Shown here piece by piece: positions 33,119 to 61,444 of a stretch of 64,000 nt of DNA; the stretch's first letter is position 1; each line of letters starts with the position of its first letter. The notes under the pieces were generated by a model. That model ran no database searches and had not been told where the DNA came from. It worked only from the letters and a program-made list of their open reading frames with translations. Position numbers and translations under genes: made by a program. The DNA comes from Candidatus Chisholmbacteria bacterium (lineage in GTDB: Bacteria; Patescibacteriota; Microgenomatia; UBA1400; Chisholmbacteraceae), in NCBI GenBank assembly GCA_963704905.1, contig CAVPHZ010000001.1:323438-387437 (forward strand). Reading direction: 5' to 3'.

Positions 33119-33132
33119 AATTGTTAACTCCC

Positions 33133-43300: not shown

Positions 43301-44190
43301 AGGGAGTGAAAAACGTTGTCCGTCGGCTGACTTTCCTTGGAAATAATGACATTTCTGAGCGTGATTACACCACTTTTCACCAACAAGTATTAGGTTTATC
43401 CGATGAAGAGATTAATACAGAATTGGATTTGCACGATGATTATCAGGTTTCAAGTAGCAACAGGGAGGCAAAACGAAACGCTGTTCTTTGGAAAAGACTT
43501 GATAAAGAGAAGAAAAGAGGAGCGGAGCGGCTGGCGAGCGTGGAGTTTAGCTTTACGCCGTTTTTAGATGATGTTGCGCACGAGAAAGAGGAGTGGAAGG
43601 AGATCGGACCGAGGGGTGTATCTCGAAGATATGCTGACAATGAGATGTACCAAAACGCCCAATCGGCGTTCTGGAAGATTTCTAATAACCTGATGGTTGG
43701 TGACGACCGGGCCCCGCAAGACCGAGCTGAATTGGTGAAAAATTTGACTGAGTTTCAAAACATCATGCAGTATCTTTCTGAGTCTGATCGGCAGAAGATA
43801 ACCGCTTCGCTTGCGTACAATGTGGTTAATAATCTTTATAAGGCAGATAAATGGACGAACATTCCCTTTTTTGGCCCAGTGATCGACTGGGGAGGACCTT
43901 GGGGATTGTGGAAGTTTGCTGGAGTGTCTTCTCCTGCACAGCGGAAGTTTGGATACGATGCAATGAGCATGACTGCTTTAGAACGCTACCAATTCATAAA
44001 TGATTTACGCCCACTGATAGGTAATGAGTGGGCAGATAAGCTGATGAAAGATACTAAATCACGGTTTCGAAATGTGGTTTACGAGTTAGTTAACCAATAT
44101 TCGCTTCCAGGTGCAATAGCATCAGCTTGGTACCTGGCGAAACCATTTTTTACGGAATTAGCGGCGTATATGAAGCAGGATTTTCAGTAG
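40339..44190 (+). CDS. very large, highly charged soluble protein of unknown function
   Basis: 1283 aa, Lys/Glu/Arg-rich, with a low-complexity N-terminus (EEKERSEEKGKTERGKK). No TM, no nucleotide-binding or relaxase HUH motif seen. Confidence 0.35.
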   Translation: MSEEKERSEEKGKTERGKKPSGSQEKEKKESSVRRRGKQQKETSAPQPPSTQPEQTVYERGDKFQGVNEKDRKNAGQLTEKMLQSAVGEAMKAGVEVNGKKIQAEDFDRLKALLFRKKEVDEEEEKSLLELLLALLQFLYEQIKQAIFGDKDDHKAIVETAKAFGIGDDSKEIMKWVTSIFTFSEEGEAELQKNVDRYLADEQDVPVPDEQMLEAWRKRGWTEGDIQRVLKEGKRGGTSGPADGEDIDVMIDAMSDDEVARIAARGDRTLATADIWQQYFAQSRQGDQAVSLNPLQATLDEQVKRLKQAQEIGDQAREKHLQREVAKSILLLERMAPARKSNNGEDVERQMGLYGPRAVDLMRRITELRKVGVYAALTAREADIRAIQIEGDTGDSLKVQTGHGEEIFQSGESEVGKKLLRDVALVQAGNLSVDEFRESLRVNYIKPVYEEVIGDAEEDPRQGFKMESWGHILMGELFESVKEAGYYGDREKQRLSSSLYARQISSLLNADANKGASITDMHKKADQLFLSEDYDTMMRTEPGLGAARRRLEAVFSLVQMDPNNRYRMPYKEFIADPEGNFEAPHIQRMVSETLLQQQGEGILRNSLDQKVSIKRKEAARIAGQAMSVSNSMLRTTERMSTSLLAPREGGEFLISTPHDKARYDTLRMSGERFETYGRGREAIKPLVDRMRQAVQPGVYEPLPGNGGFGVDRWELNPENLFKIGGNYSASHWRAHKATEQQRARGLALGLKLYEPDANKADLWRQVGERLPTVVARYFPTLALENAKDKIHYFDFEARLRSDVISGGEKESFLRYVQTRRDALLKDKKEDHLGEISSEITKDIESRILRGVSKDTAKNKEDLKKAVAGFRASGEYTLDGKLGRVFQEKVEQRQRELYLQEGARISFLWMVAKETGTEMNLNTPEWEGKAWERWVEIENKLAILQEKKLQEFLFERKEEYQDADGIAQSAYDAGHDASWRILDDPTLTEGVKNVVRRLTFLGNNDISERDYTTFHQQVLGLSDEEINTELDLHDDYQVSSSNREAKRNAVLWKRLDKEKKRGAERLASVEFSFTPFLDDVAHEKEEWKEIGPRGVSRRYADNEMYQNAQSAFWKISNNLMVGDDRAPQDRAELVKNLTEFQNIMQYLSESDRQKITASLAYNVVNNLYKADKWTNIPFFGPVIDWGGPWGLWKFAGVSSPAQRKFGYDAMSMTALERYQFINDLRPLIGNEWADKLMKDTKSRFRNVVYELVNQYSLPGAIASAWYLAKPFFTELAAYMKQDFQ

Positions 44191-44201: not shown

Positions 44202-45695
44202 TTATTTTCTTCGAGTTTCACCGGCGAGTGATTCAATCTTCTGGGCAACGTAGGTTCTGGCTCCGGAGGAGATTCCACCCGCCACACCTCGTACCGGGGC
44301 TGTGGCTACCCTAGCTCCAGCGGCAATTGGAGCAAAGATGCCGGCGGCCGGTATTCCTTTGGCTTTCAGCGCTTGCTGGAGCGTGGTTACCAGCTGGGGG
44401 GTAAAGAGGATGAAACCATATCCTATTAAAGCGAGGACAGATTCGACGTCTGTGGTAAAGCCGATGAAAGGCGGAAGCCAACCTTCACCACTATCTCTAA
44501 TGACTGAACTGGTTATTCCCCACTCATCTCTTCCTAAAGAACAACGGTCTGGATCACTTGAAGTACATGGACCCATGAGAATAGCTCCAATGAGGAGGAG
44601 GGCTGCAGCGGCAGGAAAGACAAGAACATTGGCGAGGAAATTTCGAGCCCAACTGCTGAAGCTGTCTGATCCAGGCAGAGCATTGGGAAGGATCATCAAC
44701 GGAGAGAAGATGGTCAGCATGATGATTTTTACATAGGACATGAGCAACTGGAAAAAGAGACGGAAGGCGGCAAACAGAAGTGCAACCGACATGATGACGG
44801 TGACAAATGCGTCTCCGACGATTCCGACGATAAAGCCAATGGTGTCGTTGTCAAACACGTTCTCAATGATATTTCTGATTTGATCTCCTGCGGTGTCCCC
44901 GGAAACCGTGTCAAAGCCTTTAAAGAGAATGGTAAAGATGTTTTCACCGATGAATACCTGGCGCGGTGCGGAGGCACTCGTTAGGAGCCCTTGAGTGTAT
45001 AGTGTTGAGATGACGAGATAGATGCCGAGGTAGATGAGGTCGACGAAAAAGCCTGCTATCGCAAAGGAAAAAGTGATGAGCAGCAAAGTGACCACAAGTT
45101 TTGGGAGCGAGTTTTGAAGGTTGACCACGGTTTGAGGGTCAAGCTGAGCGCGAAACATGATCATAAATCCAATGAAGATAAAGATGATCACGTAGGCAAG
45201 ATAGGCGATGTTTCTAAACGCAGCCCAGAGATCTGTCAAAGGAAGGAGGGCACGATAGCCGGTGCTCTGCGCATAGGCAGGTTCAACCGGGTTTATTTTG
45301 CGAGCGACGTATTGAATATATTGTCCTGAAGAAACAGGCCGTTCGGCGATAAGTCCGGCGATGAAGCCTCCGGCGAATTGTACTGCACCTGGCCGTCTAT
45401 AGCTGAATGGAGTCGGGTCTGCTGTGGGATGCTCAGTGGTTCTGAATGTCGAGGTACTGGTGGTGTTTAAGATTGCATTTACGATAGCAGTAACTGTGCA
45501 CTCAAGACCCACGTTTCCGTCAGCACATTCTTGCAGCGCCAAGTCGTGTTCGGCTGAGCTGGGCTGAAACCATAGGCTTTGGGCAAATATTGGTATGGAA
45601 AAGAGGGTGAATAACACGATGAGAACAGCAACGATTTTCCAGAGTGGTTTGTTGAGAACATTTCTGAGCCAGCGCAGGTGTTTCATCAGCGTCAT
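44202..45695 (-). CDS. polytopic membrane protein (VirB6/TrbL-like candidate)
   Basis: 497 aa with an N-terminal signal/TM and at least six further hydrophobic helices, in a T4SS-like context. Confidence 0.35.
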   Translation of the reverse strand: MTLMKHLRWLRNVLNKPLWKIVAVLIVLFTLFSIPIFAQSLWFQPSSAEHDLALQECADGNVGLECTVTAIVNAILNTTSTSTFRTTEHPTADPTPFSYRRPGAVQFAGGFIAGLIAERPVSSGQYIQYVARKINPVEPAYAQSTGYRALLPLTDLWAAFRNIAYLAYVIIFIFIGFMIMFRAQLDPQTVVNLQNSLPKLVVTLLLITFSFAIAGFFVDLIYLGIYLVISTLYTQGLLTSASAPRQVFIGENIFTILFKGFDTVSGDTAGDQIRNIIENVFDNDTIGFIVGIVGDAFVTVIMSVALLFAAFRLFFQLLMSYVKIIMLTIFSPLMILPNALPGSDSFSSWARNFLANVLVFPAAAALLLIGAILMGPCTSSDPDRCSLGRDEWGITSSVIRDSGEGWLPPFIGFTTDVESVLALIGYGFILFTPQLVTTLQQALKAKGIPAAGIFAPIAAGARVATAPVRGVAGGISSGARTYVAQKIESLAGETRRK

Positions 45696-45746: not shown

Positions 45747-46877
45747 CTACAGACCCTTTCTGACCCAAATCTGTTGGTTGCAGCGCTCATCATAATATAT
45801 ATACGGTTGAGATCCCGGGATGCGGGAAGAAATAGACTCCAATAGATTTTCTTTAGCACAGTGAATATAGCCAAGATAGCGGAAGTAGGTACGCGCATCA
45901 CTACCGGGATTGATATCAAGCGGAGAGCCGGCTTCTGCGTAGTCGTCGGTGAAGCGGTAACTCAGGCGTGACTCACCAGGCCAGTCAAAGGTTGGTTCGC
46001 TGAGGGCAGTGCGGAACATGGTGAAGATCGACTGAGTGTTATTTACGGTGTTGTTCCAAATCTCGTATAAGTACGGGGTGTATGTGTGAATGTACCCCGG
46101 GGTCATGGCAACTTTGATTTCTTCGTATAAGTCCTCACAAGCTCCTTGTTCGAAATCAAATGGGCTGGGGAACCAATTTCCATTGTATGGATCATTCGGT
46201 TGACCGCCTGATTGGCTAGAGTCCCAAACACATTCCATCCAAGGAGCGAAGGGGTCGCTGCGGCAAGATCCTGTTGAGCTCGATCCTCCCGGAACCCATG
46301 ACCCACCTATGCATTGGTGCCATCCATATCTGTATGGCTGGTTGCAAAATCTGGTGACTGTTGGTTCGGTTAAGTACCAATCATCGTCACAATATTGTCC
46401 TCCCTGACAACCAAAACCGCCAGTACAACAGTCTGAAAGACTGCAAGGTGAGGCAAAGTCAGGACATTGCTGAATCCGATTAACTTGCGTTCCAGGAGGA
46501 TGACCTGCTGGGACACCAACAACTGGAGCAGTGCAATACCAAGCAGGGCCAGTCAGATCGTTGGTTGGCATGCTTGCCGAATTACATTCGGCTCCCGGGC
46601 AAATATACTCGAAGTAATCTGCATAGTAGGGTTGGGGAATGTATTTGAGTTCGGCAGCCTGGAAATTGATTTCGCTGTTGAAGACATAATCACCAGGAGA
46701 ATAGTATTGATCTCCGAGATCGCACATCGGGCCAATTGAACAGGCGTTGTAGTAACAATCGAAACCTTGGGCAAAGATCGGTTTTTCCATTTTTGACAGC
46801 AGGAATAGTCCAATGATTGAGAAGAGAATGAGTGTAAGTGTGGCGTGAATTAATAGTTGCAGTCTTATACTGTTCAT
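45747..46877 (-). CDS. secreted Cys/aromatic-rich protein, hypothetical
   Basis: 376 aa. N-terminal signal/TM (LTLILFSIIGLFLLS), then over 30 Cys with many W/Y/G/P (CYYNACSIGPMCDLGDQYY...). Confidence 0.4.
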   Translation of the reverse strand: MNSIRLQLLIHATLTLILFSIIGLFLLSKMEKPIFAQGFDCYYNACSIGPMCDLGDQYYSPGDYVFNSEINFQAAELKYIPQPYYADYFEYICPGAECNSASMPTNDLTGPAWYCTAPVVGVPAGHPPGTQVNRIQQCPDFASPCSLSDCCTGGFGCQGGQYCDDDWYLTEPTVTRFCNQPYRYGWHQCIGGSWVPGGSSSTGSCRSDPFAPWMECVWDSSQSGGQPNDPYNGNWFPSPFDFEQGACEDLYEEIKVAMTPGYIHTYTPYLYEIWNNTVNNTQSIFTMFRTALSEPTFDWPGESRLSYRFTDDYAEAGSPLDINPGSDARTYFRYLGYIHCAKENLLESISSRIPGSQPYIYYDERCNQQIWVRKGL

Positions 46878-46880
46878 TTG

Positions 46881-48719
46881 TTAGCCTTCTGGTCTGTCAA
46901 TTAAAGCACAGGTAGAAACCCACCTCCATCGAGATTGAATGTTGCAAGCATATTGTCTTCCAGTTGACGAGTCGCAGCTTCCACTGCGATAGATAGCCAG
47001 GAATACTTCCAGGTCGTTCATCGGTCGGGCTGGTCCAGTTCCGCAGCTGGCAGTGGATAAGTTTGGATAGAGTGTCGTGAGCGGAGGATTACTGAAACAG
47101 CTTGAATAATTGGAGCGGTATACAGATGGCAATTGGATGTGACCGCTCAACCCGGTTCCACCGCCATTATTTTGACGCTCGAAACTACACTCCAGAGCTG
47201 GGTTGTTTACTCCGAAATCTTGCCGTGAGATGCTGTAGTTGCTGGCGTTGCTTTCATTTAGCCAGATGAGCATGGACAGGGCTGGGTGAATATTGCCGCT
47301 AGCATGGGCAATGACATCTCCATAGCATGCGGCAACATTGTTTCCTGGTCGGCCACTTACCCATGCTAGGGCAAGATTTTCAATATCTGATTGTGATCGA
47401 ACACAAGAATGTGTATTGGAGACGTTGTGGCAATCAACCACTGTTGTAGGATCGCATCCGGCTGAACCGCCACCGGCTAGACAGGCTGCTCCTGACATAG
47501 CCCAAGGACCAGCAGGACACATTTCACCCATATCTGCTTCGGTTTCTTCTTCAGGAGGTACAGGCACGGGGAGCAGGTTTGATGCAAGCATGTCTTGCAA
47601 GTAAGTGCTGACCTGGTTTAGGCGGGGAAGGTGAGGAATGCTTACCCTTTCTTCAATAGTTGAGAAGGGCTGTCCCGGCTCTGGATTGACTTGAATGAAG
47701 CCAATGGCATCTTCCCGGGTGACTGTGGGAATATTTGACCAGAGTTTGCCGTAAATTGTATCAGCCCACTGAGTGCGGTCTGCAATGTAGGTGGCAATAC
47801 AACTATTTCTGGCAACTGAACTGGCGATAGCACTACAGGTGTATTCTGGTGGAAGGTGGCTGGAAAAGTCTGATAGCCGAACTGGATTTCCTTGGTTCCA
47901 GTTTGCTGGTTCTCCATTATCTTCAAAACCAACGATATAGTCGTGATGTTCATCTCCAGCGTTATCTATCATGCTGATCTTTCTACCTCTTTGCGTTGAC
48001 AGATCTTCGTTAAATGGCAAGGCTGAAAGTAGCTTCCGATAAACACCGGCACGATTCCAAAGTTCGGGACGCTGATCAATATACACCAGACTATTGATGT
48101 CCGGTTCAAGCACTCCTTCGTAGAAGGCCCGGCCTTCAAGGTAATCGGCTAGATGTTCCTGAGCCCGGTTAAAGAAGGTGAGGTAGTCGTATCCAGCACG
48201 ATTGACGGATACCAGCGGAAGCTCGTAGGCGCGAGCATCCACGGTGTAGGTGCCTGCAATGCAAGGAAGATTATTTGGATTTGCGTCTATGCCGCAGGGG
48301 TTGTCTTGCGGCTGGACAGCGGCAACACAAGGAAAGTTCGGATCATTAAGCTCACATCCTTGTGTATGGCGAAGATAACCAACATTTTTGGCTGCCCAGG
48401 GACGCATGGCACAGTAGGGTTCGTTGGTGTCTTCTATTTCTCGGTCTGCTTCGGGACCACAAATCTCGCAGGGATACGGACGAAGCGGATGGCCTTCGCT
48501 ATCCCACGGGTCGCAGCGCTCAGCTTCTAACCCTGCAGTTCTCGGGCAGGAATCGACATCCGCTTGGGCAAGAGTTTGAGAGGGGGATGTGACTGTTGAT
48601 ATTACAACTACAATCAGTACTACTATCAACTGAAGTGATGTTTTTCTTTTATCTTGTTGTTGGTCAAAACGTTGCGTCATATTGACTAGGAAGAAGCCAA
48701 GATACCTCATAATTATCAT
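46881..48719 (-). CDS. secreted Cys-rich protein, hypothetical
   Basis: 612 aa. N-terminal TM/signal, about 30 Cys, 4-bp spacing from the downstream paralog-like gene. Confidence 0.4.
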   Translation of the reverse strand: MIIMRYLGFFLVNMTQRFDQQQDKRKTSLQLIVVLIVVVISTVTSPSQTLAQADVDSCPRTAGLEAERCDPWDSEGHPLRPYPCEICGPEADREIEDTNEPYCAMRPWAAKNVGYLRHTQGCELNDPNFPCVAAVQPQDNPCGIDANPNNLPCIAGTYTVDARAYELPLVSVNRAGYDYLTFFNRAQEHLADYLEGRAFYEGVLEPDINSLVYIDQRPELWNRAGVYRKLLSALPFNEDLSTQRGRKISMIDNAGDEHHDYIVGFEDNGEPANWNQGNPVRLSDFSSHLPPEYTCSAIASSVARNSCIATYIADRTQWADTIYGKLWSNIPTVTREDAIGFIQVNPEPGQPFSTIEERVSIPHLPRLNQVSTYLQDMLASNLLPVPVPPEEETEADMGEMCPAGPWAMSGAACLAGGGSAGCDPTTVVDCHNVSNTHSCVRSQSDIENLALAWVSGRPGNNVAACYGDVIAHASGNIHPALSMLIWLNESNASNYSISRQDFGVNNPALECSFERQNNGGGTGLSGHIQLPSVYRSNYSSCFSNPPLTTLYPNLSTASCGTGPARPMNDLEVFLAIYRSGSCDSSTGRQYACNIQSRWRWVSTCALIDRPEG

Positions 48720-48819: not shown

Positions 48820-49290
48820 CTACAACCCTGTTGTGTCTGGGCAAGGTATATTGAACTCCAGTAGCGTGAAGGTGACACCGAAGATGAAATCGTCAATAAA
48901 TTTGAGAATAAACCAGGCAAGTATCATTAGTGCAATTCCTGCGATTGCATAGGTCATGGTATTTTTGGCGTCTTGTACCGCTTTTTGATCACCACCACTG
49001 GTAAGATAGCGGAAGCCTCCAAATATTAACATTACAAAGAGAAGTATTCCGGCAATTGAGACCGCGGCTGACAGGATATTGGCAAAAATATAGTTAAAAT
49101 CACATAGGGGATTTACTGCCGAAGGTTGAACTATTCCAGCGTAGATAGTCCTAGGTTTTAGTATGCCCAATACAGCCGTGAAGAGCGCAACTACCCACGT
49201 TCGCTTCAAGTTCATTATCAGATGATTAAAAACAATCGGAACGTTCTTGGTGAGGCTCCGATTGTTTTTTCTTTTTTCCATTATGATCAT
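48820..49290 (-). CDS. T4SS pilin-like two-helix membrane protein (paralog 1 of 7)
   Basis: Signal/TM1, loop LFVMLIFGGFRYLTSGGDQKAVQDAKNTMTYAIAGIAL, then TM2. Shares the W/Y-[LI]-[TS]-[AS]-G-[GN]-[DP]...K...A..G[LI] motif with the neighbouring ORFs. Confidence 0.5.
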   Translation of the reverse strand: MIIMEKRKNNRSLTKNVPIVFNHLIMNLKRTWVVALFTAVLGILKPRTIYAGIVQPSAVNPLCDFNYIFANILSAAVSIAGILLFVMLIFGGFRYLTSGGDQKAVQDAKNTMTYAIAGIALMILAWFILKFIDDFIFGVTFTLLEFNIPCPDTTGL

Positions 49291-49335
49291 TGCTCTGATT
49301 CACAACTTAAATTCTATCTTGTGTGTACTATCTGA

Positions 49336-49683
49336 TTAATAGAATGTTGGGAGTGAAAGGGTGCTCGTGAAATTGACTCCAAAGAAGAAGTTGATCAGTT
49401 GCATGATGGCCCAGGCTGCTGCGATGACAGCAAGTCCGACCAATGCGTTTGAAATTCTTCCGCGAGCTGCTTCAATGTTGGCCTTATCACCTCCGGCAGT
49501 AATCCATTGGATTCCACCCCAAACCAGATATGCAAAGACAAGAACTCCTGCAATGAGGAAGGCTGCTCCAATGGCCCCAGAAATGAGCGTTCCAATATCA
49601 GTAATCTGGAATCCTGATGGTCTGCCAACGTTGACGCTAGCGTATGCTTGTGGTGCGAGTTGCATATCTTCACCTCCTCTCAA
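49336..49683 (-). CDS. T4SS pilin-like protein (paralog 2)
   Basis: LVWGGIQWITAGGDKANIEAARGRISNALVGLAVIAAAWAIM. Confidence 0.5.
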   Translation of the reverse strand: MRGGEDMQLAPQAYASVNVGRPSGFQITDIGTLISGAIGAAFLIAGVLVFAYLVWGGIQWITAGGDKANIEAARGRISNALVGLAVIAAAWAIMQLINFFFGVNFTSTLSLPTFY

Positions 49684-49817
49684 TGCAGTGATGATTATGG
49701 TTTTATGTACTTTCCTTGTTTATTTTGATCAATATTCGACGAACTGTCAACTTCAGTATTTGAAAATTTCTAGTCTTTGCTGAAAACTTGCTCCATTTTT
49801 TAACCTTTATATTCTAT

Positions 49818-50132
49818 CTATATTGGGTTGATTGGAAGCCCAAGAACATAGATGGCGATAAGATAGACTGCCCATGCAGCTGCAACTAAGACTAGCCCAG
49901 TTGCTGCGTTGGTCATCCGTTGTTTGGCTGCTTCTACGTGGGTTTTGTCACCTCCAGCTGTTAACCATTGGAGTGCTGACATGACGAAGAAGAGGATGAA
50001 CGCGAGACCACCGAAGATGAGTGCGAGTGCCAATACATTACTTACCACATCACCAATCGATGTGATTTTAAAGAATGTTCCAATGTCTAGTTGAGAACTG
50101 ACGTTTACAGGTATTGGTGTAAAAAGTGTCAT
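49818..50132 (-). CDS. T4SS pilin-like protein (paralog 3)
   Basis: ALQWLTAGGDKTHVEAAKQRMTNAATGLVLVAAAWAVY. Confidence 0.5.
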   Translation of the reverse strand: MTLFTPIPVNVSSQLDIGTFFKITSIGDVVSNVLALALIFGGLAFILFFVMSALQWLTAGGDKTHVEAAKQRMTNAATGLVLVAAAWAVYLIAIYVLGLPINPI

Positions 50133-50146
50133 AGGTATCTATTGAA

Positions 50147-50533
50147 TTACGGTCCAGGAAAGTCAAACGACAAATCTTCTAGGAATTGGATATTTAAGAC
50201 AGAACCGAGAAACTGAATAATAGCCACAGAGGCCACGAGTATGACGAGACCGATAGCCCCGTTGGCAATTTTGTCTCTACCTTCTTCAAATTTGGATTTG
50301 TCACCCTGAGCAGTTACCCAACGAACCGCTCCCCATGCGAAGTATAAAACAAAGAAGATACTTCCAACAATGACGAGGGTTTTCCAGATGTTAGCGATCA
50401 TCATTGCTAACGCTTCACCGGGTGCTCCGGTGCTGTATGTGGGAGCAACGGGGTTAGAGATTCTTGCATAGCTAGGAGTTGAGCTAAGCAGTGTTAGGAG
50501 GGAGCTGGTAATTATTTTCAGCTTTTTTTTCAT
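50147..50533 (-). CDS. T4SS pilin-like protein (paralog 4)
   Basis: AVRWVTAQGDKSKFEEGRDKIANGAIGLVILVASVAII. N-terminal signal peptide. Confidence 0.5.
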   Translation of the reverse strand: MKKKLKIITSSLLTLLSSTPSYARISNPVAPTYSTGAPGEALAMMIANIWKTLVIVGSIFFVLYFAWGAVRWVTAQGDKSKFEEGRDKIANGAIGLVILVASVAIIQFLGSVLNIQFLEDLSFDFPGP

Positions 50534-50544
50534 GACATCAGGTA

Positions 50545-50904
50545 TTAAGGTGTTAGTTCACCAATTCTGGCTGCTAAATCTAGAATATCAAATCCGAGCA
50601 GTAAACCAAGTATTCCGGTAATTGCCCAAGTCATGACAATGATCACCAAACCAATAGCTGCATTCGATAAATACCTCTGGGCTTTTTTTACTTTTTCTTG
50701 GTCACCTTGGGCGGTGAGATAATTCAGCGCTCCAAGCAGAAAATAGATGATGAATGCCAAACCTCCTATTACCGTGAATGTTCCCAAGAGAACGCTGAAG
50801 AAATTTTCAAGAGTGCCCCCAACATCAGTTGCAGTTACTTGGAAGGGGCTGTCTCCTGTGATTGGCTGGAAGTCTAGTGCATAGATTGGCTTGATGTTAG
50901 TCAT
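50545..50904 (-). CDS. T4SS pilin-like protein (paralog 5)
   Basis: ALNYLTAQGDQEKVKKAQRYLSNAAIGLVIIVMTWAI. Confidence 0.5.
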   Translation of the reverse strand: MTNIKPIYALDFQPITGDSPFQVTATDVGGTLENFFSVLLGTFTVIGGLAFIIYFLLGALNYLTAQGDQEKVKKAQRYLSNAAIGLVIIVMTWAITGILGLLLGFDILDLAARIGELTP

Positions 50905-50905
50905 A

Positions 50906-51346
50906 TTATGGACCAGGCCCAGTTATAGACGGTTGTAAAATGGCGGTCGCGTCTCCAAAAAGTAAAAGTCCCATCAGCGCTGCAAAGGCAAAAGCCAAAA
51001 CGACTACTATCAACCCGATGATCGATTGATAGATTTTTTGCCAGGCACTGGAGATTTTTTCCGGATTACCGGCAGAGCTGATAAATGAAACCCCACCGAG
51101 TACAAAGTTGATAAAGGCGTACAGTCCAGCAGCTATAGTAATCAGGCGAATAACATTTGAGAGAAACACTGTGGCGTAAGGGAGATCTCCATAGGCTGTG
51201 ATGGGATTGGTAATTGTTCCAATCAATCCAGCATGCGCAATTTTTACCTGAAATATAGCGTTATACACTAGAGCGAGAAGAACAATTGAAATAGTTCTCA
51301 AACTACTTACTTTTGGCAAAAGATGATGATTATTGTTCATGACCAT
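50906..51346 (-). CDS. T4SS pilin-like protein (paralog 6, divergent)
   Basis: GVSFISSAGNPEKISSAWQKIYQSIIGLIVVVLAFAFA (GNPE variant of the loop). Confidence 0.45.
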   Translation of the reverse strand: MVMNNNHHLLPKVSSLRTISIVLLALVYNAIFQVKIAHAGLIGTITNPITAYGDLPYATVFLSNVIRLITIAAGLYAFINFVLGGVSFISSAGNPEKISSAWQKIYQSIIGLIVVVLAFAFAALMGLLLFGDATAILQPSITGPGP

Positions 51347-51364
51347 GTTTGCTGTTTCTTAATT

Positions 51365-51802
51365 TTAGAGTCCGGAGGTCAGGATAGCAATACCGGTTAG
51401 CACTTCGATAATTCGGATGATCCAAAATGCTCCAAAGACAAGTCCAAGCCCCATGACACCTGCGGTCGCTGCATTTTTGCCTTTCTCGTTTTGCTGCGGG
51501 TTTCCTGCTGAAGAGATCATGGCAATCCCAGCTCCGATGATGAGTAGAAATGAAATTAACCCAGCGCCTACCATGGCCGTAGTGAGTAAGGGAGAGATAT
51601 AGTCTCCAAGTGTTCTGGTCCCACCGAATGCAAGTGGATAGGCAGTTGCAATATCAACAGGAGGAGGTTGCGCATAAACGGCTGAGGTAATTCGGAAGAA
51701 TATGCCTGTTGAGAGGATTGTGATGATTGCTATTTGGCGATTGAGGGTGGGCTTCATGCTTGAGAATAGCATACCATTATTGTGATTATCATAGCCGGTC
51801 AT
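51365..51802 (-). CDS. T4SS pilin-like protein (paralog 7, divergent)
   Basis: GIAMISSAGNPQQNEKGKNAATAGVMGLGLVFGAFWII. Confidence 0.45.
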   Translation of the reverse strand: MTGYDNHNNGMLFSSMKPTLNRQIAIITILSTGIFFRITSAVYAQPPPVDIATAYPLAFGGTRTLGDYISPLLTTAMVGAGLISFLLIIGAGIAMISSAGNPQQNEKGKNAATAGVMGLGLVFGAFWIIRIIEVLTGIAILTSGL

Positions 51803-51833: not shown

Positions 51834-52397
51834 ATGAAGTCGAAGTCTTCTGATATTGATGAGCGGTTACTTGTCGAAGGTTTGCTTAAGGGTTCAGAGC
51901 GTTGGTTAGGTTTGTATTACCGAACCTATTCATCTCCAGTTCGACGGTTTATCACTAGTCGAGTGAGGTTGCCTGATGATGCTGAGGAAATTCTCCAAGA
52001 TACTCTCTTATCTTCATTGGACTCTCTGGCACTCTTTTCGCGGAGATCGAGTTTGTTTACCTGGCTGTGCAGCATTGCGAGACATGAGATTGCGGATTAT
52101 TACCGGCGACGTACGATTAAGACGATTGTTTTTTCCAAGGTACCGTTTGTTGAGCGATTCGTGAGTCGGGCGCTTGAACCAGACGCCGGTTTTATGCGTC
52201 GTGAATATGAGCAGCGAGTTAAACAGGCGTTGTCTATGATTTTGCCTCATTATCGTACAGCGCTGGAGCTTAAATATATGGATGGGTTATCGGTGGCTGA
52301 AATCAGTGAACAACTGGGGATGAGTTTAAAAGCTTGTGAGTCGGTGCTTACCCGAGCGCGAAAGGCATTTGAGCTGGCGTATGAGCAGACAGCGTAG
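51834..52397 (+). CDS. ECF-type RNA polymerase sigma-70 family factor
   Basis: Region 2 (RFITSRVRLPDDAEEILQDTLL..L) and region 4 HTH (LSVAEISEQLGMSLKACESVLTRARKAF). 187 aa. Confidence 0.75.
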   Translation: MKSKSSDIDERLLVEGLLKGSERWLGLYYRTYSSPVRRFITSRVRLPDDAEEILQDTLLSSLDSLALFSRRSSLFTWLCSIARHEIADYYRRRTIKTIVFSKVPFVERFVSRALEPDAGFMRREYEQRVKQALSMILPHYRTALELKYMDGLSVAEISEQLGMSLKACESVLTRARKAFELAYEQTA

Positions 52398-52635
52398 TGA
52401 GAAAGAGTTTTATAGAGAACTTCAACGCAGGATTGGTGAAAACAAACAATTATATAGTGAGTCTTCCTTTCATCTTCCAGATTCGAGTTGTATGCGGTTT
52501 GTGGCTACCTACTTAGGTGTTAATCCATGGAAAGTGATCATTCCGGTGGCGGGTATTATAGTTTTGCTATTTCGAGTTGTGCTGGGAACGTCTTTTGCTG
52601 AGTTTATCTTAGATATTTTAGGAGGTGGATTATAG
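52381..52635 (+). CDS. putative single-pass anti-sigma factor
   Basis: Start (ATG at 52381) overlaps the sigma-factor stop by 17 nt. Short cytoplasmic part, one TM (VIIPVAGIIVLLFRVVLG). Classic ECF sigma/anti-sigma coupling; function inferred from context only. Confidence 0.35.
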   Translation: MSRQRSEKEFYRELQRRIGENKQLYSESSFHLPDSSCMRFVATYLGVNPWKVIIPVAGIIVLLFRVVLGTSFAEFILDILGGGL

Positions 52636-53119: not shown

Positions 53120-54400
53120 ATGACTACTGATGAATGGGTGAAAAAAAGTGTGCGGCAGGGAAAGTTGCTGGTTGAAGTTCCAGACCATTGGAGTGAGAAG
53201 AAGCGGGTGTTGGCTCGTCGGAAGGTGCTTGAGCAACTCACCGGTGTTCGCTTGTCTTCACTATCTTTGAATGAGGAGTTACTGAATGCAGCCTCCTCGA
53301 GAAATATTGAACAGGCAATTGGTGCGACTTCTGTTCCAGTTGGAATTGTTGGCCCGCTGCGCGTTCGCTCGGGGCAAGCACTTCAAATTTTCTCAAAACA
53401 AGACCTACGCATGCGTTCCCGCCATCAGGGTGGGCAAGCAAAAGAGGAGAAGGAATATTTTATACCAGTAGCGACAACTGAAGGAGCGCTGGTTGCGAGC
53501 ATCAATCGAGGGTGTAAGTCAATTACGCAGGCTGGTGGAGCTGCTGTGGTATCTGAAAAAATTGGGATTACACGGGCTCCTGTTTTTCGAGTACAAAGCC
53601 TCTCAGAGGGGAAGACATTTATTGCATATATCCGACAGCATTTGTCTGAACTGCGTACCATTGCACATGATACTGATCGACATCTGAAGCTTGTTCACAT
53701 AGAACCAAAGATGGTTGGACGGAGTGTTTTTTTACGATTTCGGTTTAATACCGAAGAAGCGATGGGAATGAATATGGCAACGATTGCTACTGATGCTCTT
53801 TCGCAGCATTTAGAAAAGGTTTGTAATGTTTCCTGTGTCAGTCTGTCGTCCAACTACTGTATTGATAAAAAGCCAGCATCGTTGAACTTTCAGTCTGGGC
53901 GAGGTTATCAAGTTTGGGCGGAAATTGTTTTACCGCCGTCTTCTGTAGCCAATTTACTTAAGACAACAGTTGAAAAAATTGCTGAAGTATCTTATCGAAA
54001 ACTGTTTGTCGGATCGGCACTTTCGAATTCACTGGGATTTAACGCACAATATGCCAATATTGTTGCGGCTTTGTTTCTGGCAACCGGGCAAGACATTGCT
54101 CATGTGGTGGAGGGATCGATGGGGATTACAACAGTTGAGCAGGTGAAGAAAGGACTCTATGTGAGTGTTTTCTTACCCTCGCTGGTTCTGGGAACGGTGG
54201 GTGGTGGAACTGGATTACCGGCTCAGAACGAAGCGCTACAGATCATGGGACTTGGTGGTGCTAAAACCGGAGATAGTGAAACATTGGCTGAGATTGTGGG
54301 TGCGACTGTGTTGGCTGGGGAGATTTCTCTTTTAGCATCTTTAGCGGAAGGGTCGCTGGCTCGGTCACACCAAAGACTGGGGAGGAACCATACAGCATGA
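53120..54400 (+). CDS. hmgA: HMG-CoA reductase, class I (archaeal/eukaryotic-type)
   Basis: EEAMGMNMATIATDA and LGTVGGGTGLPAQ match the class I DAMGMN / GTVGG motifs. 426 aa. Confidence 0.85.
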   Translation: MTTDEWVKKSVRQGKLLVEVPDHWSEKKRVLARRKVLEQLTGVRLSSLSLNEELLNAASSRNIEQAIGATSVPVGIVGPLRVRSGQALQIFSKQDLRMRSRHQGGQAKEEKEYFIPVATTEGALVASINRGCKSITQAGGAAVVSEKIGITRAPVFRVQSLSEGKTFIAYIRQHLSELRTIAHDTDRHLKLVHIEPKMVGRSVFLRFRFNTEEAMGMNMATIATDALSQHLEKVCNVSCVSLSSNYCIDKKPASLNFQSGRGYQVWAEIVLPPSSVANLLKTTVEKIAEVSYRKLFVGSALSNSLGFNAQYANIVAALFLATGQDIAHVVEGSMGITTVEQVKKGLYVSVFLPSLVLGTVGGGTGLPAQNEALQIMGLGGAKTGDSETLAEIVGATVLAGEISLLASLAEGSLARSHQRLGRNHTA

Positions 54401-55437
54401 TTCATCATAAAAAACTCACTGGAATTGGGATCGTTGGATATGGATCGTACGTTCCACGACTACGAATACGTATTTCGGAAATCGCCTCCTCGTATGGAGT
54501 CGACGGGAAACAAGTAGAACAGAATTTATGCGTCAAGCAAAAATCAGTGGCTCAGTGGGATGAAGATGTGGTGACGTTGGCGTACATGGCGAGTTCTGGT
54601 GCTCTTAGCATGGCAAATATTGATGCTACAAAAATTGGAGCACTCTATATTGGTAGTGAAAGCCATCCCTATGCGGTGAAGACTACGAGTACCATTGTTG
54701 GAGAAGCGCTCGGAGTTGGACATGAATACATGGCTGCTGACTTAGAATTTGCGTGTAAAGCAGGTACTTCGGGAGTGCAACTGATTGCTTCACATCTGCT
54801 CAGTGGTGTTATCTCATATGGTTTGGCTGTTGGGGCTGATGTGGCGCAGGCAGAGCCAGGAGATTTACTTGAATACACTGCCGCTGCCGGAGGAGCAGCT
54901 CTGCTTTTGGGAAAACGGAGAATACTAGCCCGATTAACTGGATTTTTTTCCTATTGCAGTGATACCAGCGATTTTTGGAGAAGGAGTGAGCAGAAGCTTC
55001 CACAGCATGCAGGACGTTTTACTGGGGAACCAGCATATTTCCGACACATTATTGCTGCAACTGAAGCTTTTTTTAAGGCTTCGAAAACCAATGCTTCTAC
55101 CTATGATCATGTGGTGTTTCATATGCCAAATGGAAAGTTTCCTGTACGAGCGGCTCAACGACTTGGTTTTGGCGAGAAACAATTAAAGCACGGCTTCATT
55201 GTTAGTGAGATCGGCAATCCGTATAGTGCTTCAACGCTTCTTGGTTTGTGCCGGGTGCTTGATAATGCAGATAACCAACAGCGCATACTTCTAGTTTCGT
55301 ACGGCTCAGGTGCAGGATCAGATGTGCTTTCTTTTTTTACAACACCGCTACTGGCAAGATACCGAAGAAGACTGTCGCAAGCAGCGCATCAACCAACCTA
55401 TCTTTCATATGGAGCATATCGGGCAATGGTGGGGTAA
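54397..55437 (+). CDS. hydroxymethylglutaryl-CoA synthase (archaeal-type, thiolase-fold)
   Basis: 346 aa, condensing-enzyme fold with active-site Cys context (LEFACKAGTSG). Translationally coupled to hmgA (ATGA overlap). Adjacent to the thiolase and DUF35 genes, as in archaeal HMGCS/thiolase/DUF35 complexes. Confidence 0.7.
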   Translation: MIHHKKLTGIGIVGYGSYVPRLRIRISEIASSYGVDGKQVEQNLCVKQKSVAQWDEDVVTLAYMASSGALSMANIDATKIGALYIGSESHPYAVKTTSTIVGEALGVGHEYMAADLEFACKAGTSGVQLIASHLLSGVISYGLAVGADVAQAEPGDLLEYTAAAGGAALLLGKRRILARLTGFFSYCSDTSDFWRRSEQKLPQHAGRFTGEPAYFRHIIAATEAFFKASKTNASTYDHVVFHMPNGKFPVRAAQRLGFGEKQLKHGFIVSEIGNPYSASTLLGLCRVLDNADNQQRILLVSYGSGAGSDVLSFFTTPLLARYRRRLSQAAHQPTYLSYGAYRAMVG

Positions 55438-55443
55438 TCAATT

Positions 55444-56622
55444 ATGGATAGAAGGCAACACATAGCTAGTCATGGGAAATTAGATATTGCCGTCCTTGGT
55501 GTAGGTCAGACGAAGTTTGGCGAGCTTTGGGACGCATCTCTTTTAGATCTGGCAACCGAGGCTTCTGCAGAAGCACTTCAGGATGCGAGCCTTGATTTTC
55601 GGCGGATAGACGCGGTGGTTGTGGGTAACATGCTTTCAAATACACTGCAAAATCAAGCACATTTAGGAGCGCTGGTTGCATCTCGACTCGGAATACAAGC
55701 CCCATCCTTACGAGTTGAAGGCGCTTGTGCATCTGGTGGGCTAGCAATTCGAACAGGCATTGAGAAGCTTTTGTCAGGAACTGCTGGGAACGTACTTGTG
55801 GTTGGAGTGGAAAAAATGACTGATCATTCCACTGACCTTTCAACCCAGGCTCTTATGGGTGCTTCGGATGCCCTAGAACAGTTTGCTGGAGTAACTTTTC
55901 CTGGTTTATATGCATTGGTTACCCGTGCGTATATGGAGGAGTTTGACGTTTCAGACCATAGTCTGGCAGGTGTTCCGGTTAAGAATCATGATCATGGAAT
56001 TTTGAACCCTAAGGCGCATTTTCGCTTTCGGATTAATACTGATCAGGTACTTGCGAGTCCATGTGTTGCTTCTCCTTTAAAACTTCTTGATTGTTCACCG
56101 CTGTCAGATGGTGCAGCTGCGGTTGTGCTGAGCCTTTCTAATGGATTTAAAAAACGATCGGTTCGGATTGTTGGTGCTGGGCAGGCGAGTGATGTCGTAC
56201 CTTTGGCTGATCGGCTTTCGCTCACGGAATTCAACGCAGCTCGCAAGGCTGCAGATGAAGTATTTGAAATGGCTTCTCTTGAACCTGCTGATGTTGATCT
56301 CATGGAAGTGCATGATTGTTTTACTATTGGAGAGATTTTAGCCCTTGAGGATATGGGGTTTTCAAAAAAAGGTGAGGGTTGGGTGATCGCATCGAATGGG
56401 GAGTGCCGTTTAGGTGGAAAAAGACCCGTCAATACATCTGGAGGACTTAAGTCGTGCGGGCACCCAGTTGCCGCAACGGGAGTTAAGCAAATTGTTGAGT
56501 TAACTCTCCAGCTTCGTGAAGCAGCAGGAAAGCGGCAAGTATCTGGCGCTCGGGTTGGGTTAGCTCATAATGTTGGTGGTGTTGGTGGAACTGCCGTTGT
56601 CCATTTACTTCAGTCAGCTTAG
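55444..56622 (+). CDS. acetyl-CoA C-acetyltransferase (archaeal-type thiolase)
   Basis: VEGACASGGLAIRTG (active-site Cys), ...CGHPVAATGV (C-terminal catalytic His/Cys region). 392 aa. Confidence 0.8.
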   Translation: MDRRQHIASHGKLDIAVLGVGQTKFGELWDASLLDLATEASAEALQDASLDFRRIDAVVVGNMLSNTLQNQAHLGALVASRLGIQAPSLRVEGACASGGLAIRTGIEKLLSGTAGNVLVVGVEKMTDHSTDLSTQALMGASDALEQFAGVTFPGLYALVTRAYMEEFDVSDHSLAGVPVKNHDHGILNPKAHFRFRINTDQVLASPCVASPLKLLDCSPLSDGAAAVVLSLSNGFKKRSVRIVGAGQASDVVPLADRLSLTEFNAARKAADEVFEMASLEPADVDLMEVHDCFTIGEILALEDMGFSKKGEGWVIASNGECRLGGKRPVNTSGGLKSCGHPVAATGVKQIVELTLQLREAAGKRQVSGARVGLAHNVGGVGGTAVVHLLQSA

Positions 56623-56627
56623 CTGTT

Positions 56628-56972
56628 ATGACTCAAACGACTCCAGTTTCCTTATCTCGATCAAAAGAAACACGCTACCGACTTCTGGGAAAGGTGGGAT
56701 CTGTTGTCTCATATACTTCCATTGCGGTTGGGCCAAATGGCCTTAAGAAACGAACACCGTATTTGATAGCAATTGTTGATTTCGGTGCCATGCGAGCAAC
56801 TCTGCCGCTGGCTGATGTTTCTGCTGGTGAAGTAAAAAATGGAATGAAGGTTGTGGGTGTGATGCGAAGGATGTCTGATCCTAGTGAAGATGGGATTATT
56901 TCTTATGGTGTGAAGTGTGTGCCAGTAGTCATGAATATCCGGAAGAGCTCAAAGAACAAAAACAATGAATAA
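56628..56972 (+). CDS. DUF35-like OB-fold protein (thiolase/HMGCS scaffold), lacking Zn-ribbon cysteines
   Basis: 114-aa ORF immediately after the thiolase. OB-fold-like composition. Assigned mainly by the conserved three-gene arrangement known from archaea. Confidence 0.45.
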   Translation: MTQTTPVSLSRSKETRYRLLGKVGSVVSYTSIAVGPNGLKKRTPYLIAIVDFGAMRATLPLADVSAGEVKNGMKVVGVMRRMSDPSEDGIISYGVKCVPVVMNIRKSSKNKNNE

Positions 56973-57507
56973 CATGCAACGAATGCACATCGATCAACAG
57001 GTTGTCTTGGTGGATGAGATGGACAGACCAATTGGCACGGCAGCCAAGAATGAGGTTCATACTGCTCATACACCTCTTCATCGAGGTTTGTCTGTGTTTC
57101 TTTTTGATAACAATGGCAAGGTTTTGGTGCAACAGCGGGCGCTTCGTAAGCAGACTTGGCCAGGGGTGTGGAGCAATTCTTGTTGTGGTCATCCTCAGCC
57201 TGGAGAAACATATGATCAGGCAGTATTACGAGAGGTGAAAGAGGAATTAGGCTTAGAGATACAGGATCTGAAAAAAGTGTCAGATTATCGATACCTATTT
57301 GAACGTGACGGGATGGTTGAAAATGAAATTTGCCCTGTTTTCATGGGAACGGCTGTGGGTGAAGTTACACTGGACCCAAGTGAAGTTGCTGATTATAAGT
57401 GGATGAAGTGGGAGGATTTCAAGCAGGCATTGAAAGATGATAGCGATGGAACATGGAGTGAGTGGTGTAAAGAGGAAGCTACGTTAGTGGACAAATTACT
57501 GCAGTAA
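56965..57507 (+). CDS. idi: isopentenyl-diphosphate delta-isomerase, type 1 (Nudix-fold)
   Basis: LHRGLSVFLFDNNGKVLVQQRALRKQTWPGVWSNSCCGHPQPGE...REVKEELG is the IDI-1 signature including the catalytic CC. Confidence 0.88.
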   Translation: MNNMQRMHIDQQVVLVDEMDRPIGTAAKNEVHTAHTPLHRGLSVFLFDNNGKVLVQQRALRKQTWPGVWSNSCCGHPQPGETYDQAVLREVKEELGLEIQDLKKVSDYRYLFERDGMVENEICPVFMGTAVGEVTLDPSEVADYKWMKWEDFKQALKDDSDGTWSEWCKEEATLVDKLLQ

Positions 57508-57510
57508 TGT

Positions 57511-58392
57511 ATGAAACCTGTAACGAGTAGATTTTCAGGAAAAGTGTTACTCAGCGGAGAACACAGCGTGGTTTACGGTCAGCCAGCACTTGTGGCAAGT
57601 GTTGATCGGAACATGACAGTTACCCTGCGACCTTCTAACGGTTTTCATTTACAGAGCGCTGTTGAGGATAAAATAGGTTTGGTTAGATATGCGCTTGAGT
57701 TGGCTGAGGTTGACCCTGATGTTTATAGCGTATCTATTGATTCAAATATTCCCTCTGGTTTAGGGACTTCGGCTGCGGTGTGTGCTGGTGTTATTCAAGC
57801 AGCTTATGAGTCGGTTGGAAATAAATTGGAGCGGGATGCGTTATTTCGACTGGCTTGGCAATGTGAGAAGAGAGCACATGGAAATTCTTCTGGTGTTGAT
57901 CCCGCAGCCGTCGTGTATGGAGGATTAATCTGGTATGTCCGGGATAAGGAGAGAACGACACTTCCACTCAAAACACACTACTCTTTTCTTTTGGTTGATA
58001 GCGGGACTCCTAAAGAATCTACTGGAGAGATGGTTTCATTGGTTGGTTCTCGCCTCAAACACAAGAAAGCAACATTCAAGAAACATATTACAGAAATCGG
58101 AGAAGTGACAAGATTATTTCGGAGACAGCTTTTGAAAGGACAGAGAGTTACAAAAGTAATTAATGATAACGGTTTGTTACTTGAGAAATTGGGGATCGTT
58201 AGTAAACAGACTCGAGAATTAAGCGAACACTTACGGGCAATGGGTTGCGGGGTGAAAGTAACCGGTGCAGGTGGTGTGAAAACAGGTTCTGGAATGCTTC
58301 TGGTTGACCATCCTGAGTTTGATACTATTTCAAGGAAATTAACATCTATGAGACTCAATTTGTTTGAGATTATCATTGGAGATGATCTATGA
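57511..58392 (+). CDS. GHMP kinase, mevalonate kinase family (mevalonate or phosphomevalonate kinase)
   Basis: N-terminal GKVLLSGEHSVVYGQPALVASV, and a GHMP ATP-binding loop PSGLGTSAAV. Confidence 0.6.
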   Translation: MKPVTSRFSGKVLLSGEHSVVYGQPALVASVDRNMTVTLRPSNGFHLQSAVEDKIGLVRYALELAEVDPDVYSVSIDSNIPSGLGTSAAVCAGVIQAAYESVGNKLERDALFRLAWQCEKRAHGNSSGVDPAAVVYGGLIWYVRDKERTTLPLKTHYSFLLVDSGTPKESTGEMVSLVGSRLKHKKATFKKHITEIGEVTRLFRRQLLKGQRVTKVINDNGLLLEKLGIVSKQTRELSEHLRAMGCGVKVTGAGGVKTGSGMLLVDHPEFDTISRKLTSMRLNLFEIIIGDDL

Positions 58393-60346: not shown

Positions 60347-60352
60347 AGCACT

Positions 60353-61066
60353 ATGACAATTGAAACTGAGAATTTACCCAAGCATATCGCAATCATCATG
60401 GACGGTAATCGGCGATGGGCGAGGAACAAGGGATTGCCGGCCGTGGCAGGACATGATTATGTGGCGGAAAAACTACTTGAACCTTTGGTTGACCGGTGCA
60501 TTGAGCTGGGAATACCGTTTATAACGTTCTGGGCATTTTCAACCGAGAATTGGCAGAGAAATCAGCGAGAAGTTAAAGGGATGATGCGGATATTCCGTAA
60601 AGGGTTAAAGCGGAATGCACGGCGGTTATTTGAGAAGGGTGCGCGGCTTACCATCATCGGAGATATTGAAAAGTTTCCAGAAGATATTTCCTTGCAAACG
60701 AAAGAGTGGGTTGAGAAGAGCAGAGAGAATAAGAATATTACCGTGAGTTTCGCTTTGAATTATGGTGGAAGAGATGAACTGCTTCGTGCTATTGCAAAGA
60801 TTGAAGCAGCAATTATTACTAATAAATTTTCAATTTCTAAATTGAATGAAAAAACGTTTGCTCAATACTTGGATACAGAGGGGATACCGGATCCTGACTT
60901 AATCATTCGCACCGGAGGAGAACAGCGACTTTCAGGGTTTATGAGCTGGCAGAGTGCTTATAGTGAGCTTTATTTTACTCAGACACTTATGCCTGACTTT
61001 GACGCGGAATGTCTTAGTGAAGCGGTTCAGTGGTATCAGCAGAGGAACCGACGGTTTGGCAGATAA
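60353..61066 (+). CDS. uppS: isoprenyl transferase (undecaprenyl-diphosphate synthase family)
   Basis: HIAIIMDGNRRWA...FSTENWQR...RTGGEQRLSGF is the cis-prenyltransferase signature. Confidence 0.9.
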   Translation: MTIETENLPKHIAIIMDGNRRWARNKGLPAVAGHDYVAEKLLEPLVDRCIELGIPFITFWAFSTENWQRNQREVKGMMRIFRKGLKRNARRLFEKGARLTIIGDIEKFPEDISLQTKEWVEKSRENKNITVSFALNYGGRDELLRAIAKIEAAIITNKFSISKLNEKTFAQYLDTEGIPDPDLIIRTGGEQRLSGFMSWQSAYSELYFTQTLMPDFDAECLSEAVQWYQQRNRRFGR

Positions 61067-61435: not shown

Positions 61436-61444
61436 TATTTGGTT

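Follow-up and report, generated by a model that had tools for sequence, protein, structure and literature searches.

In a 64-kb stretch of the chromosome of a Candidatus Chisholmbacteria bacterium (contig CAVPHZ010000001.1, positions 323,438 to 387,437; 64,000 nucleotides, referred to here as the window), seven short genes lie in tandem on the minus strand, and all seven of their products are relatives of type IV secretion system (T4SS) pilins of Pfam family PF18895. We consider it likely that these genes, designated pil7 to pil1 in array order, encode VirB2-like PF18895 pilin subunits of a chromosomal monoderm-type T4SS of the Patescibacteria, resembling the mating-pair formation FATA class (MPF-FATA). 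The seven-gene array is real, it is normal for Patescibacteria, and arrays of this kind have already been published; only two observations go beyond the published accounts, namely the positional orthology of the copies between genomes and a link to the pilin-like proteins of the integrative and conjugative elements (ICEs) of Mycoplasma.

Family identity and architecture of the seven proteins

The array was first noted in a sequence-only reading, which described seven consecutive minus-strand open reading frames (ORFs) of 104–156 amino acids, and all seven are present in the ORF list at exactly the coordinates given (Table 1). A scan with Pfam hidden Markov models (HMMs) matches each of them to PF18895 (T4SS_pilin), with E values from 2.5e-12 to 7.1e-06. 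Six exceed the curated gathering threshold of 26.6 bits, with scores of 30.1–47.1 bits, and pil7 (E 7.1e-06) falls 0.2 bits under it; the precomputed annotation of the source database also assigns PF18895 to P0001, P0004, P0005 and P0006, which are window proteins in that database. When an HMM of the seven pilins is run against the 567 ORFs of the window it recovers only the seven themselves and four ORFs at 61073–63079 (E≤2e-11), and the next ORF, at E 4.5e-4, is seven orders of magnitude away from these 11 paralogs. BLASTP reports 20 of the 21 pairs among the seven, which share a mean core identity of 27% (range 15–41%). The relationship is therefore one of homology, as the PF18895 matches, the family HMM and BLASTP all show, and is not confined to a shared hydrophobicity.

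The alternative that these are small hydrophobic proteins of separate kinds (holins or bacteriocin immunity proteins, for example), alike in composition only, draws on the fact that they are short and dominated by two helices, and that weak spurious matches to many membrane families do occur. However, the PF18895 matches are specific and above threshold, the seven-gene HMM isolates the 11 paralogs cleanly, the T4SS gene context is conserved, and no match to a holin or immunity family was found for any of the seven pilins. On these HMM results the holin or immunity-protein reading was rejected, and we regard it as vanishingly improbable.

The proposal that the proteins are T4SS pilins of a VirB2/TrbC-like or Gram-positive type was correct, as seen from PF18895, from cross-matches to the families PF04956 (TrbC/VirB2) and NF045849 (the Mycoplasma ICE pilin-like protein), and from the T4SS locus in which the genes lie. 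Among 42 aligned family members, all 42 match PF18895, 41 match NF045849 at E≤0.01 (best 1.2e-11), and ten match PF04956 (best E 7.2e-06). None of the seven window pilins reaches the PF04956 threshold of 27.9 bits, the best being pil6 with 11.5 bits (E 0.37), and on these scores they are classed as relatives of that family and not as members. Likewise their NF045849 scores, which lie at 20–23 bits (pil1, 23.0; pil2, 19.9), do not reach the 40-bit equivalog cut-off, and this similarity too reads as homology and not membership. Sequence and fold searches against solved pilin structures gave no match, nor did a tblastn search of plasmids with a relative that matches both PF18895 and PF04956. We are highly confident that the seven proteins are T4SS pilins, and the Pfam PF18895 reading of their identity agrees with the published accounts (PMC12102498, PMC12857230, PMC10633639).

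The shared two-helix architecture that had been described is borne out by hydropathy, each of the seven having two long hydrophobic helices with a short polar loop between them. These elements, about 70 residues in total, appear as hydropathy segments in all 11 paralogs; pil7 has three hydrophobic segments, and pil5 and pil3 have the two helices only. An AlphaFold2 model of pil2 is a helical hairpin (H30–62 and H67–101; mean predicted local distance difference test score, pLDDT, 69.5). An N-terminal signal region had been claimed for every protein and is found in four (the genes at 51365, 50906, 50147 and 48820), the other three having a short leader only. For these three genes (50545, 49818 and 49336) in-frame stops permit no longer leader, and pil5 could be extended upstream by about six codons at most. 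The loop motif holds approximately: one proline and two glycines are invariant across the 11 paralogs, and the K, [WY] and [GQ] positions vary. Similarly, the proposed GGDK and GNPE/GNPQ subfamilies are recovered only weakly by clustering, in a split between pil1–5 (GGD/QGD) and a group made up of pil6, pil7 and the second array (GNP). Divergence among the paralogs is greatest in the N-terminal region before helix 1. Intergenic gaps within the array are 1–18 bp, except for 152 bp before gene 6 and 45 bp before gene 7, and the G+C content of the array is similar to that of the adjoining DNA.

Table 1. Features of the pilin array and its surroundings in the window (↓, end of the leader or signal-like region)
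Feature	Coordinates	Strand	Length (aa)	PF18895 (bits)	Characteristics
pil7 (array gene 1)	51365–51802	-	145	26.4	GNPQ loop; signal-like N-terminus, end VYA↓Q
pil6 (gene 2)	50906–51346	-	146	30.1	GNPE loop; signal-like N-terminus, end AHA↓G
pil5 (gene 3)	50545–50904	-	119	37.8	QGDQ loop; short leader MTNIKPIYA↓L without hydrophobic signal core
pil4 (gene 4)	50147–50533	-	128	31.7	QGDK loop; canonical signal peptide MKKKLKII...SYA↓R
pil3 (gene 5)	49818–50132	-	104	37.5	GGDK loop; without signal peptide
pil2 (gene 6)	49336–49683	-	109	40.5	Length from probable start ATG 49665
pil1 (gene 7, last)	48820–49290	-	156	47.1	GGFRYLTSGGD loop type; signal-like N-terminus, end IYA↓G
Second array (four PF18895 paralogs)	61073–63079	-	100, 128/111, 264, 120	25.1–38.5
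Cys-rich secreted/anchored protein	46881–48719	-	612		23 Cys; no Pfam/NCBIfam match
Cys-rich secreted/anchored protein	45747–46877	-	376		19 Cys; no Pfam/NCBIfam match
VirB6-like polytopic membrane protein	44202–45695	-	497		TrbL_4 E 7.4e-4; NCBIfam MMCAP2_0566 E 2e-06
Protein without any Cys	40339–44190	+	1283		Opposite strand; interrupts T4SS cluster
M23 peptidase domain (C-terminal) protein	36385–39729	-	1114		PF01551 32.4 bits
346-aa protein	35332–36372	-	346		Inside T4SS cluster
PrgI/VirB3-like protein	34120–35235	-	371		PF12666 PrgI 31.9 bits
TrsD-like protein (resembles VirB4 N-terminal region)	33133–34107	-	324		NCBIfam VirB4_plasma E 2e-08, TrsD E 1.8e-05
VirB4-type ATPase	31220–33118	-	632		P-loop_TraG 103 bits; AAA_10
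dnaA and dnaN	28422–31185	+			Bac_DnaA, DNA_pol3_beta domains
ECF-type sigma factor	51834–52397	+			Sigma70_r2/r4_2/ECF domains

The secretion locus and the distribution of pilin arrays

Predicted gene content marks the locus headed by the array as a T4SS of monoderm type, one that comprises VirB6-like, M23, PrgI/VirB3, TrsD-like and VirB4 proteins (Table 1), and these homologs of the Patescibacteria-type T4SS are all encoded on the strand of the array. The VirB4 gene adjoins dnaN and dnaA, and past these come rnpA, yidC and a Jag-like gene, which places the locus at the set of genes around the replication origin. The GroEL protein is 86% identical to one from Candidatus Chisholmbacteria, and the contig is 772,908 bp long; the host is thus identified as a Microgenomatia-type Patescibacterium. 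The VirB6-like protein also gives a weak TrbC match. There is no match to a coupling protein or relaxase among the large window ORFs scanned, no VirB5, VirB7, VirB9, VirB10 or VirB11 was found, and the 64-kb window contains no tRNA or Rfam element.

Related loci were collected by searching a single genome of each species for the last pilin's motif, using as seed an alignment around GGFRYLTSGG (the 11-paralog alignment is too divergent to serve); this gave 207 confirmed matches, of which the best 80 loci (L001–L080) were used. Nearly all 80 derive from metagenome-assembled genomes (MAGs) of Patescibacteria. The longest tandem runs, counted as ORFs matching the pilin HMM, are of six (n=32), seven (n=25), eight (n=8) and nine genes (n=2), and the shorter runs are mostly on truncated contigs. 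Seven copies in tandem had been called unusual, which is true of bacteria in general, although in the Patescibacteria runs of six to eight genes are the norm. With the family profile, 111,629 representative clusters are retrieved at E≤1e-3. The secretion genes accompany the arrays in these loci: tblastn places VirB6-like matches beside arrays in eight of them, the PrgI-like protein is kept near arrays in 11, and within 10 kb of the arrays TrsD-like matches occur in 39 of the 80 and VirB4 matches in 33. The VirB4 protein is 69% identical to that of L001, a Patescibacteria MAG, and 47–50% identical to those of Saccharimonadia loci.

These observations accord with the published record. A pilin array has been defined as two or more PF18895 or PF04956 genes in tandem or one gene apart (PMC12102498, PMC10633639), and the runs of seven and four in the window are both arrays in this sense. 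Quiñonero-Coronel et al. reported 441 arrays, each of 2–11 PF04956/PF18895 genes, in 383 Patescibacteria assemblies; they are commonest in Microgenomatia and Saccharimonadia, have a mean identity of about 25%, and belong to T4SS loci that often adjoin dnaA and dnaN, a layout given for Microgenomatia (PMC12102498). In Southlakia epibionticum, Wang et al. showed by transposon sequencing (Tn-seq) that the pilin series of the T4SS cluster is essential, and it is for this organism only that a requirement of the array for epibiotic growth is known (PMC10633639). In the supplement to that study, SEML1_0014, 0017, 0018 and 0019 are each scored growth-defective or essential, and the stand-alone pilin SEML1_0024 is listed as not essential. 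Few machines have been shown to be essential for the epibiotic life of Patescibacteria; the T4SS is one of them, and what it does has yet to be established (PMC11665869). Neither a structure nor a filament of these PF18895 proteins is reported in the literature; the newly solved Pam pili of the candidate phyla radiation (CPR), considered as a counterpart, are an unrelated system with an immunoglobulin (Ig) fold.

Comparison with individual systems places the window array closest to those of other Patescibacteria. The arrays of S. epibionticum ML1 (SEML1_0014–0019) and of Nanosynbacter lyticus TM7x (the 'Sec-secreted array') also belong to PF18895, and like the window array they consist of six to eight divergent tandem paralogs of about 25% identity, are associated with VirB4, TrsD, PrgI and VirB6, lack a coupling protein and relaxase (in the window, among the large ORFs), and are origin-proximal, as reported for Microgenomatia. 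There are differences, however: the window array lies upstream of the VirB6-to-VirB4 genes and points the same way, whereas that of S. epibionticum is divergent from them, and in contrast to both the S. epibionticum and TM7x arrays the window has two Cys-rich secreted proteins between array and VirB6 and a second, four-gene array 9 kb away. The window is thus a clean Microgenomatia example, with pilins, Cys-rich proteins, VirB6 and VirB4 on one strand by the origin, and not a new kind of object. The pilin array itself is a trait that separates the Patescibacteria T4SS from every other monoderm T4SS.

Outside the phylum, the nearest likeness is to the two-helix proteins Mbov_0395 and MMCAP2_0565 of the Mycoplasma ICE (NF045849), to which the alignment extends over 62–69 residues of the 80-position model. 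The partner family MMCAP2_0566, which is VirB6-like, matches the window VirB6-like protein as well, and both systems are monoderm T4SSs. The Mycoplasma ICE pilin-like protein is encoded by a single gene and is not known to occur as an array. The view that MPF-FATA systems are without a VirB2-type component is weakened by these 41 of 42 matches to NF045849 together with the VirB6-like match, and the Mycoplasma link suggests that monoderm T4SSs may always have had such a component. The T-pilin and RP4 TrbC (PF04956) share with the window proteins a helix-loop-helix hairpin and a leader peptide, although those diderm systems have one pilin gene whereas the window represents a monoderm host with many paralogs. 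From the sequence comparisons, vertical inheritance together with the monoderm machinery would appear no less likely than co-option from diderm systems.

Positional orthology and the possible roles of the paralogs

The arrays of L001, L003, L008 and L009 are collinear with the window array. All row maxima fall on the diagonal in the comparison with L003, and six of seven do so in that with L008; L001 and L009 have six genes apiece, and against them the order is essentially monotonic. At four positions the orthologs clearly outscore the paralogs. At position 1 (pil7) those in L001, L002, L003, L008 and L009 score 48–66 bits against 39 for the best paralog; the corresponding values are 78–100 against 52 at position 2 (pil6), 76–89 against 66 at position 6 (pil2), and 72–92 against 64 at position 7 (pil1). 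The same tendency is seen more widely. In a set of 30 six-gene arrays, 57% of the best matches between arrays fall on the diagonal, as against 17% expected, and reciprocal-best-hit clustering of 59 Saccharimonadia-type arrays yields three orthogroups with one member in all 59, at relative positions 0.00, 0.17 and 0.35, two further orthogroups that are nearly single-copy, and a 3′-end group with about 1.8 copies per array. The best match of pil1 is to the 3′-end Saccharimonadia orthogroup, OG6; a Louvain-based assignment of the window pilins to these orthogroups is to be given little weight. Local duplication has also occurred recently, as L002 carries three pil2-type copies that are nearly equal. 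Because positional orthologs and single-copy orthogroups occur at fixed positions, the copies appear to be old and to have been maintained individually in a fixed order.

Two further features bear on how the proteins might be made and processed. The first concerns pil2, whose likely start is the ATG at 49665, 5 nt after the strong Shine-Dalgarno sequence GAGGAGGTG, the listed TTG at 49683 being less likely. No other gene of the window array has such a site, and pil2 is also the gene that follows the 152-bp gap (regions 49665–49683 and 49684–49817). A matching GGAGGTG/GGGGGTG site precedes the pil2 orthologs of L001 (gene 5), L008 (gene 6) and L009 (gene 5). Because of this strong ribosome-binding site, pil2 is a candidate for the bulk, most highly translated (major) subunit in this lineage. 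Scans for promoter and terminator consensus sequences performed no better than on shuffles. The second feature is an h-x-A↓Q motif before helix 1, which is present in 25% of the pre-helix regions of the pilins of the window and of L001–L080 as against 12% in shuffles. The leaders that end in it are of two forms, one of ordinary signal-peptide length and one very short, with 30 proteins having a leader of 5–14 residues (e.g. MEKQLLA↓Q and MNKVWA↓Q). The latter are too short for a Sec signal peptide, and their form hints at a dedicated processing step. VirB2 propilin is cleaved between Ala and Gln, which resembles the enriched site of these pilins.

We propose the following scheme. The propilins would insert in the membrane with the N- and the C-terminus facing outwards and the basic loop inwards, and their leaders would be removed, often at the h-x-A↓Q site. 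The VirB4-powered machine would then extract the subunits into a T4SS-associated polymer, which could be a pilus or else a short wall-crossing conduit, and this structure may serve contact or exchange with the host bacterium that carries the epibiont. The paralogs would occupy distinct, non-interchangeable roles comparable to those of minor and major pilins, with pil2 as the candidate bulk subunit. That the pilins are non-redundant, specialised subunits we judge slightly better than an even proposition, and that they build a real extracellular fibre slightly worse than one. More tentatively still, and as a possibility that we hold less likely than not, the arrays could represent an ancient kit of fixed order, with single-copy 5′ 'minor' pilins and one to four 3′ 'major-type' pilins that form a T4SS fibre or conduit of heteromeric make-up. 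On this reading the kit would have come down with the monoderm MPF-FATA machinery, to which its Mycoplasma ICE relative points, and not from diderm VirB2 systems, a source that the literature leaves open. Should the paralogs be orthologs of fixed position, a heteromeric assembly with a defined stoichiometry would be expected sooner than phase or antigenic variation.

The scheme has to be set against two other accounts of why there are several pilins, and of where they reside. The paralogs might be interchangeable variants of one pilin, diversified for surface variation or for matching to host strains, as proposed for the VirB2 proteins of Bartonella and Anaplasma; antigenic or host-range variation has likewise been proposed for the pilin arrays (PMC12102498). 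Bartonella and Anaplasma phagocytophilum do resemble the Patescibacteria in having several divergent tandem VirB2 copies and a chromosomal T4SS for host interaction, an analogy drawn in the same study. The peak of divergence before helix 1 and a core identity of just 15–41% accord with such variation, as do the recent local duplications (the pil2 triplet of L002, the 73% identity within the second array and the 1.8 copies of the 3′-end orthogroup). However, whereas the Bartonella and Anaplasma copies are thought to be antigenic or host-range variants, those of the Patescibacteria are conserved positional orthogroups and are scored essential in S. epibionticum, and positional orthologs outscore within-genome paralogs at positions 1, 2, 6 and 7. 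In particular, since three orthogroups are strictly single-copy at fixed positions in 59 of 59 arrays, the copies would long predate speciation and have been kept individually. Copies that are old and kept in a fixed order are better accommodated by specialised subunits, and comparison of the sequences thus favours a heteropolymer over antigenic variation, which is the less likely meaning; we consider interchangeable variants improbable.

The main rival to a fibre of specialised subunits is that these VirB2-related proteins stay embedded in the membrane as two-helix parts of a translocation channel and form no extracellular structure, as may hold for the pilin-like protein of the wall-less Mycoplasma ICE systems and for other monoderm T4SSs. 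The near-universal NF045849 matches and the match of the VirB6-like neighbor to MMCAP2_0566 are in keeping with this, as are the general lack of pili among monoderm T4SSs, the recovery of Pam pilins and not VirB2-like proteins in filament preparations from a cultured Patescibacterium, and the existence of fusions of up to 17 pilin domains, which are hard to square with subunit-by-subunit extraction into a helical pilus. Three points run the other way, none of them decisive: the signal-peptide-like leaders and conserved A↓Q-type sites suggest processing like that of true pilins, seven specialised copies exceed the apparent need of a simple channel lining, and a thick-walled monoderm epibiont needs a wall-spanning structure to reach its host. 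On balance we regard a purely membrane-embedded role as less likely than not.

Several observations nonetheless weigh against a polymer of specialised pilins. The three middle genes of the window array are not clearly nearer to their orthologs than to their paralogs, and the last gene alone among the window pilins can be assigned one-to-one to a Saccharimonadia orthogroup. The strong Shine-Dalgarno trait of pil2 is restricted to its nearest relatives; the idea that it marks a fixed position across the phylum was not borne out, as it is confined to the pil2 orthologs of L001, L008 and L009 and the pattern is absent from Saccharimonadia arrays. The 80 loci are biased to arrays carrying the motif of the last-position pilin, those that lack this motif falling outside the sample. 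The essentiality of each pilin by Tn-seq could reflect a polar effect in an operon together with few insertion sites in small genes. Gram-positive T4SSs are generally without pili (PMC12102498), and a pilus of these proteins has never been seen in any Patescibacterium, the characterised filaments being type IV pili and the Ig-fold Pam pili.

The second array and neighboring genes

The second array is a duplicated two-gene unit of the form A-B-A′-B′, with core identities of 73% between the genes at 62422 and 61073 and 45% between those at 62777 and 61445. Its 264-aa member has a Cys-rich extension of about 190 residues before the pilin domain, and its GNPE members resemble pil7. Between the two arrays (53120–61066, plus strand) is a mevalonate pathway operon that looks complete, although the genome is reduced, at about 0.77 Mb; the operon encodes 3-hydroxy-3-methylglutaryl-coenzyme A (HMG-CoA) reductase, an HMG-CoA synthase-like protein, a thiolase, two GHMP kinases and diphosphomevalonate decarboxylase, and is followed by a gene for undecaprenyl-diphosphate synthase. 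The HMG-CoA reductase gene adjoins the pilin array in L002 and L003 too.

The ECF (extracytoplasmic function)-type sigma factor gene is divergent from the first pilin gene at a distance of 31 bp, and sigma homologs are found upstream of the arrays in L002, L003, L005 and L007; a role as regulator of the pilin array is possible. A 99-aa ORF that overlaps the sigma gene (region 51834–52635, plus strand) has a C-terminal hydrophobic stretch and could encode an anti-sigma factor. The arrangement of sigma factor, HMG-CoA reductase, array and VirB6 seen in the window is whole in L002 and L003, and L007 retains the sigma and VirB6 parts.

Within the T4SS cluster, the Cys-rich proteins that occupy the slot between array and VirB6 are fast-evolving, and their relatives carry 22–35 Cys. 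The same slot holds single Cys-rich proteins of 815, 892 and 716 aa in L001 (3694–6138), L004 (9969–12644) and L009 (10673–12820), and no gene in L002 and L003. Because the 612-aa and 376-aa window proteins align, weakly, to different parts of these single 716–892-aa relatives, the pair is suggested to be a split gene. These proteins could be a fibre-associated adhesin or tip factor. The 1114-aa M23 protein is a candidate cell-wall hydrolase in the role of VirB1. The 1283-aa and 346-aa proteins have no Pfam or NCBIfam match and no homolog in the related loci fetched. The VirB4 function is split between the TrsD-like and the ATPase ORFs (31220–34107, minus strand), and in the related loci for which coordinates were listed the TrsD-like matches adjoin a VirB4 match.

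Two observations concern the databases. The MAGs of L002, L003, L004, L007, L008 and L028 are titled 'uncultured Gammaproteobacteria' or 'Pseudomonadales' and carry Patescibacteria-type pilin arrays; these titles look like taxonomic mislabels. Many of the database proteins P0044–P0193, along with P0002, P0003 and P0008, have 2–17 pilin domains fused, P0053 being 1775 aa long with 17 matched stretches, and such fusions may be true polyproteins or may arise from read-through of arrays in lineages with recoded stops.

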